A stretch of DNA of 35,265 bases from Chiloscyllium plagiosum (lineage: Eukaryota), in contig NC_057719.1 in NCBI RefSeq assembly GCF_004010195.1, forward strand, positions 41,465,752 to 41,501,016. Direction: 5' to 3'. Shown piece after piece: positions 8,645 through 21,990 of this stretch (position 1 is the first letter of the stretch; the number at the start of each line of letters is the position of its first letter). A program made the translations under genes and the position numbers. Below the pieces are notes generated by a model. The model saw only the letters and a list, made by a program, of their open reading frames with translations, was not told the origin of the DNA and ran no database searches.

Positions 8645-8808
8645 AAATTGTTCTGAGAATTCCCTTCCTAAAGGTATTGAGGGACTACCAACAGCACATG
8701 GACTGCTGCAGTTCAAGAAAGCAGTTCACCACCACCTTCTCAATGGCAACTATGGATTGGCAATAAATATTGGCCAGCCAATGAGCTCATGTCCCATGAG
8801 TGAATTAA
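8645..8808 (+). mobile_element. 3' end of a CR1/L2-group LINE (same tail as 30326-30755)
   Basis: NSLPKGIEGLPTAHGLLQFKKAVHHHLL C-terminus plus GGCAATAAAT...CCCATGAGTGAATTAAA; aligns within the window to 30326-30384 plus 30699-30755. Confidence 0.8.
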
Positions 8809-8818
8809 ACATTGGCTG

Positions 8819-9028
8819 TCTTCCTGGTGGTAGAAATTGAATAAAGATTTGTGCACTTTGTGTCTTTCACTGTGTCTCACACCTGCACACACACACCATG
8901 GGTGCTGGGGATAAAATAAGCACTACCGCACTTAGGTGGTAGTGTGGGGAAAAAAAAAGGTGTGGGGGGGGGGGGGGTTAAAATAAAAAAAAAACAGGAG
9001 TGTCAACATGATAAAGATAAAAAAAAAT
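8819..9028 (+). mobile_element. Tx1-like retrotransposon 3' UTR unit 1 with a composite tail
   Basis: Matches the reverse complement of ~16060-16199 (AATAAA, (CA)n, CCATGGGTGCTGGG, hairpin at 8920-8945); flanked by TAAACATTGGCTG at 8806-8818 and 9029-9041. Confidence 0.85.
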
Positions 9029-9041
9029 TAAACATTGGCTG

Positions 9042-9181
9042 TCTTCCTGGTGGTGGAAAATGAATAAAGATTCGTGCACTTTGTGTCTTTCACTGTGTCT
9101 CACACCTACACACACCATGGGTGCTGGGGAAAAAATAAGCACTACCGCAGTTAGGCGGTAGTGTGGGGGTTAAAAAAAAAC
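9042..9181 (+). mobile_element. Tx1-like retrotransposon 3' UTR unit 2
   Basis: Same start as unit 1 (TCTTCCTGGTGG), hairpin at 9139-9164, A tail; flanked by TAAACATTGGCTG at 9029-9041 and 9182-9194. Confidence 0.85.
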
Positions 9182-9199
9182 TAAACATTGGCTGAAAAG

Positions 9200-9400
9200 A
9201 AGCATGGAATAATGGCTAATGGGTTTTTTTGGGCTGAGTTCCCCATGGGGTCATAACTGGTATCCTTGCTTTTTGTAAAATCTATTAGTAATCCACACCT
9301 TGATTAAGCAAGTCATTACAGGTTGCAGGATAGGTGGAGAGAGCTGTAAATAAAGCACATTGTATCCTACACTTTATGAATAGGGGCATAAAGTACAGGT
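9200..9400 (+). mobile_element. Degenerate CR1 RT fragments
   Basis: GAGTTCCCCATGGGGTCATAACTGGTATCCTTGCTTTTTG resembles 'GVPQGSVLGPLLF'; ORF segment RAVNKAHCILHFMNRGIKYR resembles 'VVKKAYGMLAFI.RGIEY'. Confidence 0.55.
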
Positions 9401-10283: not shown

Positions 10284-10595
10284 TTTTTAGAAAATATTTT
10301 AATATTGAAAAAAACTTTCTTTACAAATTTATAAAATTACAAAAATATGAAAATGTAAAATTATAACAACAAAAACAACAATAAACCAACTATTGTACTA
10401 CTCTACAAAAGAACTCACAATTACACTCATTACACATCAATAAATAAATATGTAAATAAATAACGCCTCTCAGTGTAACAACACCTTACCTCTCAACCTT
10501 TGAAAGCATCAATTATTAAACCCACGTTTGCTAGAAATTCTTCTTTTCAGGACAGTAGGCTTATTAAACCAAACCACCACAACTAGACTAAAGCC

Positions 10596-13500
10596 CTAAT
10601 TTAAAATGGCTGGCCGATCTGCTTTCAAATAATTCAAAAAGGGCTGCCACGTCTTATAAAAATTGTCCATTTTCAGGTGCACTACCTTTGTAAGACAGTC
10701 CAAAGGAATGTGTTCCATAATTAACTTATGCCACCCCAACAGATCCAGCCGGTTCTCAGACCTCCAGCATATCAGAATGTTCTTCCTCACACAAAACCTG
10801 AGGATGCTAAAAAGCTTTTTCCCATGTACATCTAAAGGAGATAAATTCGGCAAACTGAGGAGAAGAGAAATCTGGTCCACCTTGACTTTGGTCCCCAAGA
10901 CCCTCTCTATTATTCTGCCACAGAGCTCCAGTATGCACGGAACCTGTGGCAGGACCATACACAATGAGTGAGGGTACCCGTGTTTATTTTACATTTGGAG
11001 CACGTTGAAGACACTCCCTGCTTAAATTTTGCAAGATGATCTGGGGCCAGATGAGCCCTATGAAGAATTTTTAACTGCATAGCATGCATCCTACTACATA
11101 TCGAAATCTTCTTCACACTCTCACAAATGTCCCCCCAAGTTTCCAGAGTGATCTCCACCCCTAACTCTCTCTCCCAGACCTCCCGGAATCGCTCGATATT
11201 GCCCAAGGAACCTCCCCTTGACAAACGATAGAGAGTCCTCACTGAAGGAGTGCTCTTAGCCTGAAGCACCCTCCTTTCCGTATCAGATTTGTAACACTCA
11301 GTAAGAGGCATAGTCTCTTTTCGGATAAAATCACTGATCTAAAAAAAACGGAAGTGGTCCCTATTCGATAATCCATACTTACGAGTTATTTGATCAAATG
11401 ACATTAACGTTTCATCTTCAAACACGTCACCCAAACAAAAGACTCCCCTATTCGCCCAGGACTTAAACCCGGGATCCATTGTCCCCGCCGGAAACCTGGC
11501 ATACCAACTATGGGAGTATGGAAAGACGTTTTAGACATATTACCCTCCATCTGTCTCATTGCCCTCCATGCTTTGACAGTGTTAATAACTATTGGATTGC
11601 GGCAATGTTCCGCAACTATCCTCATTGTGTCCAGAAACAACAGGTTAATAAGAGGACATTTTGCCTGGGAGGCCTCAATGTCCAACCATATCGACGCTGA
11701 GTCCTCACAGGCCCAATCACACTCAAAAGATCGAAGGGAGCTCAATTGATATTGTCTGACATCCGGGAGATCCACTCCTCCCAAACCCTGGGGCATTTGC
11801 AATATTGTAAGCTTGATAAAGGGCTGCTTATGGCGCCAAATAGAAGGACTAAACCAACCAGTTAATTTCCGAAACGTTTGTCTAGGAAAAAGCAAGGAAA
11901 GAACATTCATTTTAATAAGAGCAACTCGACCTAGCCATGATATTGGATGGGCCCGCATCTTAGAAGGTCTTGTTTAATTTTGTCAAACAAAATTAGCCTG
12001 AATAATTGATCAAAACTAGGGGGAACAGAGAGGCCAAACAAAGAAAGCCTCCCTTTGCTCACATAAAGGGGAACCCACCTTCAACGTCCGGTATTCCCCT
12101 AAGACTCCCTATAGGCATAGCCTCCGATTCTGGAAATTGATCTCCTAACCTAAGAAAAAGCCAAGTGAATGAATACATTGTATCAAACAGGGCACCAAAA
12201 CTGCCGGGTTCAAAAGAACAATGAGAACATCATCCGCATATAATGTGATCTTATGTACCTTTGACCCCACCCTTCGGGCAGATTTATCAGGGTCCCCACG
12301 AATGGCTTCTGCAGCGGCTCAGTCACCAATGTGAAAAGCAAAGGTGAGAGGGGCCAGCCTTGCCAACTGCTCCTATCAATGTTAAAATTATCAGACTTTA
12401 TACCATTAGTGAGAACCGCTGCCAGATGATCACTGTAAAGGACCCTTACCCATCCAGTACACACTTCACCCAGACCAAACCGCTCCAGAGTATAAAAAAT
12501 ATATGGCAATTCCACCCAGACAAATGCCCTCTCCACGTCCAAGAAAACCACCAACCCTTGAACTGAACGTTGCTGGCACACTTGAATCATGTTAAGCAGT
12601 CTCCTAGCATTATTAGAAGATCTGCGACCCTTTGTAAAGCCCATCTGATCCTCCTTAACAATAGAGGGCAATACCCTTTCCAATCTCAATGTCAGAGTCT
12701 TCGATAAAATTTTAAAATCAGAGTTTAAAGGCAAGATGGGTCTGTAAGAAGTTTAGTCTTCTGAGGCCTTCCCTATCTTGAGGATAAGAAAGCTATTAGC
12801 CTCTTTCAAGGATGGCTGGAGGCAATCCCGACTATATGAATAGTTATACATGTCTATCATCGGCCCTGACAGTATGTTTACAAATTCTTTATAAAACTCA
12901 CTGGGAAAGCCATCAGGGCCTGGTGCCTTACCATTTTGAAGTTGCCTCATTGCCTCCTGTATCTCTTGGGCTATTAACGGAGCATTAAGAAGAGACACCT
13001 GTTTAGCCAACACACCAGGAAGATCCAAATTCTCAAAAAAAGACTCCATTTTATCCCATCTGCCCTCAGACTGGTAAAGTTCAGAGTAAAACCTCCAAAA
13101 CGCCTCATTGATCTCTTTAACATCAAAAGTAAGAGTTCCATTCCCTTCCCTTTTGGAAGCAATAGACTGGGAGGCATCTTTCTTCCCGACCAAATATGCC
13201 AAGTATTTACCCAGCCTATCACCATGCTCAAAAGCCTCTGCTTCGCAAAGAAAAGTTTCTTCCTTGACTTATGCGTTAGCATGGAGTTTAAGGTAGATTG
13301 GAGAGCTGTGATCCACTGCAGCTTAGTCACCGACGCTCTACTGTAATATGTCGTCTCAGCTGCCTTCAGTCGTGTCTCGAGCAGACGCTGCTGCTCTCCC
13401 TTCTGTCATTTCTGACTGGCCGAGTATGAGATAATTATCTCTCTAGCATAGGCCTTAGCCATCTCCCAAGGAATGGACGGATTACTAGCTGTACCTGAGT

Positions 13501-14335
13501 TGATGGCCAAAAAAGCTTCAAATTCCCTCAAAGTATTCTACATACCTGCTGTCCTTGAGGATGAAGGGATCCATTCACCAGTACCGTGAGCCCATTGCAT
13601 CACCCTTAATCTTAACCATTAAATGCAACACTGCATGGTCAGAGTTGGCAATATTCCCAATCAAACAGGATACCACCAAATCTAAAAAATCCACGGGAGT
13701 TAGGAAATAATCAATACTTGTGTGGCATTTATGAGGATTGGAAAAGAACATAAAATCTCTGACCGTAGGGTGTAAACATCTCCAAACGTCAACAATCCCA
13801 GTTGTACACATAGATGACCCAAATGCTTGGATTATGAAGAAAGCTTTGCGGGGGGCCTTTAGGCATTCTGTCCAGCACAGGATTCATAAGGCAATTAAAT
13901 TCTCCCCCTCCCGCCCCATAATAATATGTAGGACACCAAGCCCATCAGCTTAGACAATGCATCAATCAGAAATTTAAGAGGATGGGCTGGAGGACAGTGG
14001 ACATTCAAAATACTATATCCCTGGTCATGTATAAGGGCCTTAAGAATAACAAACCGACCTTACTCATCTTTAACACAATGTATAAAATTAAATGGGAGAC
14101 CCTTCTGGAGGAGTATTGCCACTCCTCTGCTCCTCGTACTAAAAGACGAGAAAAACACTCGCTCAAACCCATCCTGCTGCAACTTCAACTATTCCTTGTC
14201 ATTAAGATGAGTCTCCTGCAACAGGGTAACATCCACCCTCTCCTTTCTAAGGCTCAACAACACCTTTTTTCTTTTAACTGGCGAATGAATCCCTCTGATA
14301 TTCCAGGTGCACCATTTAAGAATGCTGCTAACCAT
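10596..14335 (-). pseudogene. L1 ORF2 (APE endonuclease, reverse transcriptase, Cys-rich C-terminus), frameshifted
   Basis: MVSSILKWCTWNIRGIHSPVKRK start; DVWRCLHP...FFSNPHKCHTSIDYF...SDH (endonuclease); GKAPGPDGFPSEFYK, LNSDFKILSK, QGWPLSPLLF and ITLYADDVL (~12222-12250) (RT); CSKCKINTGTLTHCVWSC. Split over many ORFs in the track. Confidence 0.93.
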
Positions 14336-14784
14336 GATCCTTTGCAATCACCTTTGACCTGCCGAGGGGAACAGTTTTTCTTGCAACATGCTGAGCACAC
14401 TCAAAAGGAGACTCATAGAGCCTATTTACAAAAAACCAAAAAAAACTTAATTACAAAACACAAAAGGTATTTAGTGAGGGACTCTAACCCATGCCCATAG
14501 AGGGTGCTTACATTTCCCACACACACCTCCATCCCCCCTTCCAGCTCGAGCCGCACCCCAAACCCAAGCAATGGAAGAAACCAAACAAAGGACATTGTAA
14601 ACACAAACGTATAACAAAAGCAGTGAGCACTCTGCTCACCCCCCACAATATATCAATACCACTCCAGCTCAGAGAGAAAAAAAACCCACCAAAAACAGCT
14701 TCTTTGGGACAAGAGTGAAGTACAAGAAATCAAAGCAAGACAAAAAAAAAGACACTATTGTCCATGTCCATAAATACATCTACA

Positions 14785-15618
14785 TTATTTTAAAGTGTCT
14801 AGGAAGTTTTTGGCTTGTTCCAAGGAATCAAACGACCGCATAGTCTCCTCATAAGTAATACGAAGCACTGCTGGGTATCTTATCGAATATTGAATACTGA
14901 GGTCCTTTAGCCTTCTCTTACCTCATCAAACAATTTCCTCTTGTGGATCACTGCCACAGAAAAGTCCTGTAAAAACATTATCTCAGTGCCCTGATAGGTC
15001 AGTGCATGCAGATGTCTCCCCAACTTTCTCGAAGTTTCCATGACTCTCTGCTTGTCCTTGCAGCATTGAAACCGTATCAGAACCAGATGGGGATGCTGAC
15101 CCTGACCGGATCTGCGCACCGCAACCCAGTGAGCTCTGTCAACCTTCACCCGGTGCACCTCAGCATCCCAGCCAAGAAATTGTGGCAACCAGTCTTCAAA
15201 AAAGCTTGCTAGCTGCCTACTTTCTACTCCCTATGGCAGGCCAATTACACGGATACGTTTCCTCCTACCTCTATTTTCCAGGTTATCGAACCAGTTTCTC
15301 AAAGGCCTGGATATGCCCCGCCGAGGACTCGACCTCAGTCTCAACCTCTTCAACTCGCTTCCCGAGCCCTTTCAACTCCCTCTTGTGCTTTTACAGCATG
15401 GCTGAGATGGGCTCCAGTTGATTACGAGTCTCTTCCCTCATCTCCTGGATCAGCCTTAGGATTGCTCCGAGTTCCTCCACGATGTTCTGTTGCACAGGCA
15501 TTTCTTTCACAGCTGCAGGGGGAGCTGCACTGCTTCCCCTGTAGCAGTCTTGGGCTCGCCCTATGTTTTCGAGGGTCCCGAATGTTGAGACTTGGCCATT
15601 TGCTTCTCCTTAGTCATT
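14785..15618 (-). pseudogene. L1 ORF1 (coiled coil, RRM, CTD), disrupted
   Basis: ORF 14907-15188(-) VKVDRAHWV...HLVLIRFQCCKDKQRVM...YQGTEIMFLQDFS, followed by YSIRYPAVLRITY, matches L1 ORF1p; start and stop are approximate. Confidence 0.85.
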
Positions 15619-16001
15619 CTCGCACACTTGAGAAAGGATTTAAATGGTTGTATTAACAAATTCTTTCCAAAAAAAAGCAAAAGCGGTGGGGGGGGGGGTG
15701 AAAAAATATTACTATCATGGGTTGGGGTGCAGATCTCAGCAAGGCTGATCTATTCAGATCGCCGTCATCTTGCATTTCCCCCAAGTTGGTGATATCTGTT
15801 GAGCAATTATTTCTGGCCTTGCCAGTGTCTCTTGTGCATCTTGTATATGATTGCTACTCAGTCTGTGTTGAGAGTGAAATAACTCCACAGAGGCCAATAT
15901 CCAAGACACCCTTTAATTATACATGGAGAGTCCTTGGCACTGATCCAATCCCCTCAGAATGAGCACTCAGAGTGAGCAGGATGTCCGACACTCCTGTTTA
16001 T

Positions 16002-16679
16002 TATTTTTTCTTTTTTTTTTGTTTTTTCTTTTTTTTCTTACTCCTGCTCTTTTTTTATATTAAACCCCCGAACTACTGCCGAACTGCGGTAGTGCTTATT
16101 TTTTCCCAGCACCCATGGTGTGTGTGTGTGTGTAGGTGTGAGACACAGTGAGAGACACAAGGTGCACAAATCTTTATTCAATTTCCACCACCAGGAAGAT
16201 AGGAAACACCTGAGTGGCCAGTGACAGGCACTGCCCTTCACATCAAAGGGCAGTGCTGTGTGATCAAACAGTGAAGGGGAGGGTAGGGACTAAATCAAAA
16301 TAGAGTTGGAGGGGGAAATAATGCACTCCACTCCCTGCGGCGCCCACCTCTCCCTGGACAACTCCAGGGTGTTGATGGACACCGCATTCCCCTTCTCCAA
16401 GGACACCCAGGCCCTAACGTAACCACGGAAGAGGGGCAGGCAGTCAGCCCTAACCACCCCCTCCACAGCCCGCTGCCTGGACCTGTTGATGGCCAGTTTG
16501 GCCAGGCCCAGGAGCAGACCCACGAGGAGGTCTTCAGACCTGCCCTCCCTCCTCCGTACCGGGTGCCCAAAGATCAGGAGCGTGGGACTGAAGTGCAACC
16601 AAAAGCAGAGGAGGAGGTTTTTGAGAAAATCAAAAAGGGAGTGCAAACGCCCACATCCAATATACACGTGGTCCACGGA
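16002..16679 (-). mobile_element. 5'-truncated Tx1-clade non-LTR retrotransposon nested in the LTR
   Basis: Perfect 15-bp TSD GACACTCCTGTTTAT (15987-16001 and 16680-16694), A-rich tail, 3' UTR with hairpin, and an open ORF2 C-terminus. Confidence 0.9.
16290..16679 (-). pseudogene. Tx1-like ORF2 C-terminal fragment (open frame, truncated within the zinc knuckle)
   Basis: SVDHVYIGCGRLHSLFDFLKNLLLCFWLHFSPTLLIFG...DLLVGLLLGLAKLAINRSR matches the Tx1 'H....C.RL..LF..L...LL..AKLAI...R' pattern; stop at 16290-16292. Confidence 0.8.
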
Positions 16680-16796
16680 GACACTCCTGTTTATACCTGT
16701 CAGTCAGGGCTCCCTGATTGGACCAGACTAACAGCCCCGATCAGGGAACTCCCATGCTACGAAGCCCACCTGGCTGAGCCCTTTACAATTACTCAA

Positions 16797-18066: not shown

Positions 18067-18320
18067 TGCAACTTGGGGGTAAATGGTAAGGTTGGCAGCA
18101 AGTTGCCAGTACCAAGAACACCTGCACTATACCTGACACAAATGTCAATCCCCTTCTTGCCATCATCATAAGCAGCAGGCAGAGCATGATCACTCATGTT
18201 CATTTCTAGAATCCTTTTAGGCAGAATCTCCAGAGCAAAGGCAAACACAGGAGAAGGAGCGAGAGAGTGATAAATAACATGCTTGCAATCTGTGGAATTT
18301 CTTGCCCAGTGAAGCAGGTG
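18067..18320. repeat. Inverted repeat, left arm (~254 bp)
   Basis: Reverse complement of 18738-18990, with 2 substitutions and one 1-bp indel near the outer end by my reading. Confidence 0.95.
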
Positions 18321-18545
18321 TGGCACACATCCACCACCATTAGCCTACCATTGCATCTGACGGAGGCCCTGTTAGGTTTAGAAGGGAAGTGAAAATGAGC
18401 TGATGTTAGTGATCTTTACATGGTGCCGCACATATGAGCCGAATTCCAGAATATCCCACATTTTACTGGTGACTGAACTGATGAACGGAATTCACCAACA
18501 TGGGTGCTGTATGGGAGTTCCTGCTGCACACTGAGTTGTGACATT

Positions 18546-18771
18546 GAACATAAAAACATACGAAATAGGAGCAGGAGTAGGCCATCTGGCCCCTTGAACC
18601 TGCTCCACCATTTAATAAGATGATGGCTGATGTTTTCATGCAGTCAGCTCCATTAACCCTCCCGTTCACCATAACCTTTAATTCCTTTACTGTTCCAAAA
18701 TCTATCTTTGCCTTAAAAATATTTAATGAGGTAGCCTCACCTGCTTCACTGGGCAAGAAATTCCACAGATT
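18546..18771 (-). mobile_element. CR1 3' end (5'-truncated)
   Basis: GAACATAAAAACATACGAAATAGGAGCAGGAGTAGGCCATCTGGCCCCTTGAACCTGCTCC tail; minus-strand translation NLWNFLPSEAGEATSLNIFKAKID. Confidence 0.9.
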
Positions 18772-18990
18772 GCAAGCATGTTATTTATCACTCTCTCGCT
18801 CCTTCTCCTGTGTTTGCCTTTGCTCTGGAGATTCTGCCTAAAAGGATTCTAGAAATGAACATGAGTGATCATGCTCTGCCTGCTGCTTATGATGATGGCA
18901 AGAAGGGGATTGACATTTGTGTCAGGTATGGTGCAGGTGTTCTTGGTACTGGCAACATGCTGCCAACCTTACCATTTACCCCCAAGTGCA
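18738..18990. repeat. Inverted repeat, right arm
   Basis: Reverse complement of 18067-18320; its first ~34 bp are CR1 sequence. Confidence 0.95.
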
Positions 18991-20669: not shown

Positions 20670-21990
20670 CCTAGCCATCTTTAAAAGGCCCCTGTGCACC
20701 CAAACAAGCATTGGCATTACAAAGCTGCCCTGATCAGTCAAGGCTATTTCCAGAAGACATTGGAGAAAGGGAAGATGATATCATGATTCTCCAACAGGGA
20801 ACTGTTGGTCCTGGTTGAGCAAGTAGTGCAAAGGAAAGGACCAGCAGAGGAGGCCACCCACCAGACCTCGCAGCTCAGTCCAAGGTCACCAACCAGGCCA
20901 GCACTGCCACTTCTTCGCTACACCAGGATAAGTGCCACAACCTTCTTTCTGTCACCTCATATTTAGTCTTTCTTTATTGCTTTATCCATCATGCATCAAT
21001 GCTGTCACTCTCACTATTGCCTACAACATCTTCCCTCAGTTGCTGTCACCCACTCTAACGATCCACACCAGTTATCCTTCATGCCCTCTGCGCTTCCTAC
21101 TCTCTCCCTCAGAAACATCACCACCTTTCCACTATCTGCACCAGCTGCTGTGCCACACACCCATCTTCACCTCACTCAATTCCTCCCTTTCTCTCATTAC
21201 AGGAGAAGACAGACCGTAACAGTGAGGGGCCTGTACTGTTGTCTACATTAAGTTACTCATCCTACATGAGAGACCACTCTGTGGGGGGTGCTGAAAACTC
21301 CATGTCCCACCAACCTGTGTAGTAACCACTCTTCACTCCATGGTAATTCTCACATTAACTCAGCAGGAAGAATGCTCCCTTACACACCACCTCCACCAAT
21401 TGGCTATACTGCCTTGACTGTCTTATATCTGGCAGGTACTACTAGCATGTCTACCACCTCCTCGATCAAACATCCAGCTCCCCCAGAAGTTAGTTCCTCA
21501 ACCTTTGCGGGCAAAAGTACCGAGGCCTCAGGGAAAGCACCAGCAAGGCTGCATCCTGCACGTTCCATCAGCTTAGGTACTGATACCTTGGTGGGAACGT
21601 CAGCTTCGGAAATTGTGGAAGCACAGTCTGTGAGCACTTCACTGTAATTGTTCCGCAGCTAGCTGAGGAGGAAATGCTCCAGGCTGCTGGCATTTGGAGG
21701 ACTACCTGAGACCAGGTCTCTACTCAGGCATGGTCAGGAAACAACTGCCTGAGACCAGGCCCCTACTCAGGCCCAGTCAGAACATGACTGCCTGAGACCA
21801 GGTCCCTGCCATGCCCAGTCAGGAAACAACTGCCAGAGACCAGGCCCCTGCTCATGCCCAGTCAGAAAATGACTGCCTGAGACCAGGCCCCTGCTCAGGT
21901 TCAGTCAGGAGAGGATCCATTTTGTTAACAAACAGAGACTTGATCCAAATGCACAGAGAAGAACAGGAGCAGCACACAAGTATGTGGGAA
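20670..21990 (+). pseudogene. Decayed Harbinger-type Myb/SANT gene, copy B (multi-exon remnant)
   Basis: FSNRELLVLVEQVVQRK N-terminal helix; mutated donor AGG|ATAAGTGCCACAACCTT (~20927); C/T/A-rich intron; acceptor CTCTCATTACAG|GAGAAG (21202/21203, EKTDRN); S/T/P-rich downstream segment in ORF 21288-21647. Confidence 0.55.
21701..21914. repeat. Minisatellite, 5 x 42-43 bp
   Basis: Units start at 21701, 21744, 21787, 21829 and 21872; consensus ACTGCCTGAGACCAGGYCCCTRCTCAKGCCCAGTCAG plus 6 nt. Confidence 0.95.

Follow-up and report, generated by a model that had tools for sequence, protein, structure and literature searches.

The window, that is, the whole stretch of 35,265 bases that was analysed, carried pieces of a Tx1-like LINE family at two insertion sites. 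One site lay at the TATA box of an LTR-like repeat, where the inserted copy was flanked by a 15-bp target duplication. The other was an unrelated TAAACA site, at which two units, here called unit 1 and unit 2, stood in tandem. TAAACA was common to both sites. The two places were also linked by a 13-base motif, AAACAGGAGTGTC, which was found three times in the window: at 8992 on the forward strand and at 15987 and 16680 on the minus strand. The two minus-strand occurrences were the two target duplications of the LTR-nested copy. The forward-strand occurrence was in the tail of unit 1. The features of the tandem locus, which had no LTR, were as follows:

8803..8818, forward strand: left local target duplication, AATTAAACATTGGCTG, identical over 16 bp to 9026-9041 and over 13 bp to 9182-9194
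8819..8949, forward strand: unit 1, a 5'-truncated 3' UTR of a Tx1-like LINE that closes with a stem-loop region and GTGTGGGG
8950..8979, forward strand: first layer of the tail of unit 1, A9 and then a second copy of the element's end (G-GTGTG-G-run-TT) with the G-run expanded
8980..9004, forward strand: layer attributed to the LTR, an A-run with AATAAA (8982-8987) followed by CAGGAGTGTC
9005..9010, forward strand: AACATG, a probable continuation of the LTR (which has GGACATC in the window) or else the beginning of a second target
9011..9027, forward strand: distal A-rich tail, the likely priming site, with A at 9016 and 9018 in other records
9026..9041, forward strand: middle local target duplication, covered by a contig of record X5
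9042..9180, forward strand: unit 2, a second 3' piece with the 5' breakpoint of unit 1 and a plain TT-poly(A) tail without the motif
9182..9194, forward strand: right local target duplication, 13 bp

The features of the LTR-nested copy and its host repeat were as follows:

15875..15986, minus strand: downstream part of the LTR-like repeat, ending in CA
15987..16001, minus strand: 3' target duplication, ATAAACAGGAGTGTC, which together with the last A of the tail gives AATAAA at 16002-15997
16002..16066, minus strand: tail of the LTR-nested copy, in which two A-rich runs enclose GAGCAGGAGT (16049-16040)
16067..16679, minus strand: 5'-truncated Tx1-like copy, with the last 127 codons of ORF2 (16673-16290) and the 3' UTR
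16680..16787, minus strand: upstream part of the LTR-like repeat, with the TG start, CCAAT, TATAAA and the 5' target duplication (16694-16680)

The Tx1 label given to the element in the original prediction was supported by protein comparison. The 127-codon piece of ORF2 was 44% identical over 121 amino acids to the 149 kDa protein (ORF2, P0011) of Xenopus Tx1, with an E value of 4e-18. It was 69% identical to the protein P0001, which itself showed 41% identity to the Xenopus protein over 99% of its own length. A Hemiscyllium protein model was also among the protein matches, which makes a shark the likely host. Pfam gave no match for the 127-amino-acid piece, and its matches on P0001 (RT and zf-RVT) were weak and under the cut-off. 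The one match in Rfam, at E 1, was far below the cut-off of that database and was taken as chance. Every copy in the window was truncated below the RT, and the element appears Tx1-like in that its ORF2 is most similar to the ORF2 of Tx1. The copies showed poly(A) tails, 5' truncation and target duplications of 15 and 13-16 bp.

At the tandem locus, units 1 and 2 were framed by three copies of TAAACATTGGCTG, of which the first two shared 16 bp. The left copy sat at the end of an abundant unrelated repeat, and the sequence upstream of it (8700-8790) was high-copy. As had been claimed, no LTR was present here; apart from TAAACA, the site had little in common with the LTR site (6-7 of 15 positions). 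Unit 1 (8819-8949, or 8819-9027 with its tail) was 92% identical to unit 2 and 88% identical to the LTR-nested copy. The two units differed by six substitutions and four gap columns in 127 aligned columns. Three of the differences (8912/9131, 8931/9150 and 8937/9156) were at positions where both alleles were common in the family. The C at 8931 was frequent in organism A but rare in organism B, where it made up 581 of a summed depth of 629,840 at 9150 in record X9 (contig depths are not copy numbers and were not treated as such). A plain local duplication of unit 2 was rejected because unit 1 differs from it at family-variable sites. From these alleles, unit 1 likely came from another, younger source.

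The 5' breakpoint common to both units (8819 and 9042) was not accompanied by microhomology: the target ends in GGCTG and the element continues with CCTA. Either annealing of a new cDNA to the older unit 2 or a duplication followed by conversion would explain it. Among the papers listed in a literature search, there was no case of shared breakpoints. The stem-loop region of unit 1 folded better than shuffled sequence (z -3.3). Unit 2 had a z score of -3.2 but paired differently, and the LTR-nested copy had one of 0.44, so the stem-loop is not preserved to the same degree in all three. Record X9, from organism B, covered the right flank (9194-9250) but not the junction between units 1 and 2. 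Unit 1 may be younger than the split between the organisms, and the hole in X9 proves nothing in this respect. One contig of X9 comprised two element pieces with an A-run and the variant target word CAGAAGTCTGTC between them. Thus, arrays with related targets exist in organism B.

The tail of unit 1 started with G4 (8946-8949), A9 (8950-8958), GGTGT plus G14 (8959-8977) and TT. It continued with A4-T-A10 (8980-8994) and CAGGAGTGTC (8995-9004), and it ended with AACATGATAAAGAT (9005-9018) and A9 (9019-9027). The letters of 8946-9027 bear out the layered tail that had been described. We rejected the idea that GGTGT-G14-TT is foreign DNA, since it repeats the element's own end, GTGTGGGG(G)TT; this assignment was based on the occurrence of GTGTGGGG at 8942-8949 and of GTGTGGGGGTT where unit 2 ends. 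With the A-runs collapsed, A4-T-A10-CAGGAGTGTC was the full 15-bp LTR duplication with seven extra A's. The next six bases could be aligned to the LTR with one gap and two mismatches, with ACAT in common. The chance of finding ACAT at that offset of the LTR was about 0.017. By this alignment, the tail probably carries about six more LTR bases past the 15-bp duplication. The segment 9005-9018 had no other match within the 35,265-base window.

The end of the tail, ATAAAGAT-A9, reads as a decayed poly(A). Positions 9016 and 9018 were both A in four of four RNA reads (with four different starts) and in three contigs of record X1, and 9016 was A in one contig of X9 as well. The four RNA reads differed from the locus of unit 1 at three or more other places. 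As the reads and contigs with the same pattern differ elsewhere, the motif followed by a few bases and an A-run is not unique to the unit 1 locus. RNA reads with the motif and then A's may represent cleaved transcripts, other genomic copies or priming on a genomic A-run. Four of 24 listed sequencing runs were compared with the window. Among the records, X1 is possibly the window's own source, and X21 is linked to it by the species label alone.

Without its insert, the repeat that hosts the other copy is about 220 bp long, and it begins with TG at 16787 and ends with CA at 15875. We call it LTR-like on the basis of these TG...CA ends and its CCAAT and TATA motifs. No duplication flanking it was seen by eye, and no second copy of it was found within the window. 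On the 5' side of the insertion, TATAAA stands alone, and AATAAA occurs at the 3' junction. The 3' edge of the target duplication is the centre of an imperfect dyad (15974-15999, minus strand), with CAGGAGTGTC on one side and GGACATCCTG on the other, which may be relevant to second-strand cleavage. About 170 bases from the repeat begins a long decayed LINE with broken frames (about 10300-15700, minus strand), which looks L1-like from its motifs.

The tail of the LTR-nested copy had also been reported to contain an embedded motif. The word in question, GAGCAGGAGTAA, is present at 16038-16049, but it matches the duplication over only seven bases and the end of another repeat (18569-18579) over 11. 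The inner layers of the two tails of the window align at 21 of 25 columns, many of which are A, and both tails have the same T-10 nt-CAGGAGT spacing. The segment 16040-16061 (minus strand) aligns about equally well to the tail of unit 1 and to the end of the other repeat (18554-18579), where 11 bases match exactly. In the same layer, GAGCAGGA is also the reverse complement of LTR bases that lie directly downstream. GAGCAGGAGT may be a decayed form of the layer in unit 1 or may come from another parent site, and it is not independent proof. We also considered the LTR-nested copy itself as the direct parent of unit 1. It was rejected, being truncated and separated from unit 1 by 11 substitutions in 130 columns.

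The match between the tail of unit 1 and the LTR target (8992-9004) was exact, as originally predicted, although the duplication is 15 bp long rather than 13. Of the 13 matched bases, three belong to the A-run, which leaves 10 that are informative. By base composition, AAACAGGAGTGTC is expected 1e-6 times in the 83 bases of the tail. When the tail was shuffled with its dinucleotides preserved, none of 20,000 shuffles matched the duplication over more than 10 bases, and five reached 10. The 1,745 remaining 83-base tiles of the window stayed within the same limit of 10 bases, which seven of them, from two places, reached. We also surveyed the sequences that follow A-runs of at least seven bases. 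The match was seven bases or fewer at 32 of the 33 places, and the 33rd was the unit 1 site, with 13 bases. The match is far above chance.

A misassembly was the other way in which the motif might have been spurious. A contig of X5, which comes from a study other than that of X1, extends over 9025 and 9028, which lie 35 and 32 letters from its end, and has a base difference at each of these two positions. It crosses the junction, so tail, target copy and unit 2 are joined in another sample too. As far as could be tested, there was no sign of misassembly, with none of the listed contigs spanning all 561 bases. The tail is of low complexity and the run length of its G14 is unchecked, which speaks for chance or error. 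Given that none of the 20,000 shuffles exceeded 10 bases and that a contig of another study crosses the junction, we give almost no credence to chance or error as the source of the motif. In viral and metagenome contigs, the element patterns had no match. The LTR pattern was found at two metagenome and 37 viral loci, but all 39 fitted the pattern alone and were discarded as chance.

It seemed that the tail at 8980-9010 arose as a very short 3' transduction from a Tx1 parent residing in such an LTR, to which we assign a probability of roughly two in three. If a variant with a stacked array in the parent LTR is included, a read-through origin becomes quite likely. A parent at the LTR target and a short read-through had been suggested by the original prediction, and with a match far above chance this is the most likely explanation. 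The bases at 8995-9010 are non-element sequence between A10 and the distal A-rich tail, and they lie within the 16-bp duplication. The A9 end and the 16-bp duplication of unit 1 are marks of target-primed insertion. The segment 8995-9004 matches the sequence that follows the copy at 16002 on its 3' side; this copy represents the class of the parent and not the parent (it is truncated and has other alleles). Contig joints gave further junctions between element and motif: at 9160->8987 in X5 and 9179->8986 in X9, element ends are followed by the A-run and the motif elsewhere, which is the kind of parent expected. The idea that several transductions were stacked in the tail was not supported in that form. 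Only one foreign layer could be mapped to a flank; the first layer derives from the end of the element itself, and the last is ambiguous, being either LTR bases with a decayed poly(A) or a second target.

The following course of events would produce such a tail. At the LTR site, the A tail joined to the duplication turns TATAAA into AATAAA, as seen at 16002-15997, and this AATAAA likely sets the cleavage. The transcript of the parent would run through the A tail, would be cut 10-17 bases past AATAAA and would receive a new poly(A). The resulting RNA would end in CAGGAGTGTC and a few LTR bases. Reverse transcription could then have started from the distal poly(A) at the non-LTR site 8803-8818, which was the 5' duplication of the older unit 2. 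An insertion there would leave the order target-unit-target-unit-target. Slippage or restarts early in reverse transcription might have extended the inner A- and G-runs and duplicated the last bases of the element. The target would likely have been chosen by the endonuclease and not by the carried motif. In the tail of unit 1, AATAAA ends at 8987, which is 17-23 bases before 9004-9010, or 10-17 bases in the frame of the LTR. In a limited literature search, no paper dealing with a shark Tx1 tail or with the conversion of TATA to AATAAA turned up.

Several observations weigh against read-through. It concerns one locus, for which no parent copy was found in the window, and 10 bases from the hexamer is at the low end of the usual spacing. 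Position 8984 was A, and not the T of AATAAA, in five of six RNA reads, although the alignment of A-runs is ambiguous. The common 5' breakpoint of units 1 and 2 is not accounted for by read-through alone. Finally, the match ceases to be exact where the duplication ends, and its extension rests on four bases. The stop weighs against read-through because a tiny stacked insertion would give it too. In that case, the parent's LTR array would have held a tiny, almost tail-only insertion in the duplication behind the parent, read-through would have carried the duplication together with this stub, and 9005-9027 would be the stub or a second target (it begins with AACAT, as the local target does) and not LTR. 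The 14 bases of 9005-9018 are about one duplication long, and the X9 contig with element, A-run, variant target and element shows a comparable order. We nevertheless consider the stacked array unlikely. ACAT continues the LTR as described above, the A's at 9016 and 9018 in other records are what a decayed poly(A) would show, and there is no A-run between CAGGAGTGTC and the next layer, which a second round of transduction needs.

An origin at the DNA level would dispense with a read-through RNA. Unit 2 and its target would have been copied locally, and the 3' half and tail of unit 1 would then have been overwritten by gene conversion from an LTR-nested paralogue. This accounts for the identical 5' breakpoint, which microhomology does not favour, and for the fact that unit 1 has other family alleles in its 3' half. 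It needs two rare events, whereas annealing of the cDNA to the 5' part of unit 2 would be a single one, and RNA reads with the motif and A's do exist. We judge it very unlikely.

The original prediction had offered RNA-assisted targeting as the alternative to read-through: the motif, whether part of the element or an acquired guide, would pair with the nicked LTR strand during priming. The pairing of the motif was estimated at about -23 kcal/mol with the bottom strand of the LTR and -3.8 kcal/mol with the local site (RNA parameters, rough values), and the T-10 nt-CAGGAGT spacing common to the two tails could be an inherited layer. There are also precedents in published work: downstream target bases improve R2 insertion (PMC6795142), and they were proposed to anneal in the case of R1 (PMC2718515). 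The insertions of the window tell another story. Unit 2 has no motif, yet it inserted at the TAAACA site; unit 1 bore the motif but landed off-target; and the LTR-nested copy, which is at an LTR, retained the motif inside its tail, with priming 38 bases further on, in the distal A-rich run. A motif that primes would not be copied as an inner layer, and the motif was therefore not the primer in these two events. We regard RNA-assisted targeting as highly improbable.

The RNA ends were examined among 1,828 RNA reads. Loose ends behind 8949, 8958, 9180 and 8937 were seen in 186, 154, 151 and 51 reads, respectively, with A-runs directly after the element. Most reads end in GGGG(G)TT-poly(A), although an oligo-dT bias could hide distal layers. 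The mean RNA depth was 8.4 on the motif and 470-790 on the UTR of unit 1, a difference to which oligo-dT priming at the first A-run would contribute by lowering the share of the motif, so that it is weak evidence. With unit 2 lacking the motif, most RNA ends lacking it and the motif copied as an inner layer, the claim that it is a part of the element that guides priming was not supported. Another version is an acquired and self-renewing guide. Insertion at the TATA box would provide each LTR-resident copy with a new poly(A) signal directly ahead of the target word. The RNAs of LTR-resident copies would end in the target, pair with the nicked LTR over 13-15 bp and steer the next insertion. Guide use on target leaves no trace, because a motif-primed LTR insertion resembles an ordinary target duplication. 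Such a guide, if true, would be visible solely in off-target fossils such as unit 1; we think it quite unlikely.

Target bases carried off-site are known from R1, and short transductions with two tails from L1; the tail described here is a fresh example of this known type. According to Stage and Eickbush 2009 (PMC2718515), R1 copies outside 28S in Drosophila carry up to 14 downstream target bases, the off-target sites share 4-9 bp with the normal site, and tandems parted by the target duplication arise by insertion in the 5' duplication of an older copy. Similarly, we observed an apparently site-specific LINE, target bases carried off-site and a tandem of the form target-unit-target-unit-target. 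R1 is co-transcribed with rDNA, whereas the target here is the LTR-like repeat of another transposon. Unlike in R1, the carried word is enclosed by two A-runs, and a poly(A) signal arises at the junction itself. Annealing was proposed for R1; here, the copied motif shows that priming took place further 3'.

Short 3' transductions of L1 have two tails, and the cleavage is usually 10-30 bp past the poly(A) signal (PMC13009371). The tail of unit 1 resembles them in that a short flank between two poly(A) tails serves as a source tag. The differences are that this tag is a repeated target word, which names a class of parent sites and not one locus, and that the element is Tx1-like. In Alu and L1, experiments have shown that inner A-runs expand and that tail letters are duplicated by slippage of the reverse transcriptase (PMC3415434). 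In unit 1, by comparison, the piece involved would be 10-20 bases of the element's end plus a G-run. Tx1-8_Crp and Tx1-4_AMi are crocodilian Tx1 families inserted in LTR retrotransposons (Kojima 2015, PMC4494074). Like these two families and Xenopus Tx1, the element studied here is a Tx1-type LINE that appears to prefer a site in another transposon. The passages of PMC4494074 on these families do not describe target bases in tails or the position within the LTR.

If the tail is indeed a short 3' transduction, LTR-resident Tx1 copies were active sources and also seed off-target sites. The target word in a tail would then be a tag for counting how much of the family descends from LTR-resident parents, and the step by which the TATA box of the target becomes a poly(A) signal lends itself to testing. 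Had the carried word steered priming, it would imply a self-reinforcing target preference in poly(A)-tailed LINEs; the two visible events speak against this.

Two further repeats were observed elsewhere in the window. The segments 18071-18324 and 18734-18987 form an inverted repeat of 254 bases, which are 99% complementary and 409 bases apart. A tandem repeat with a period of about 43 bases occupies 21690-21937.
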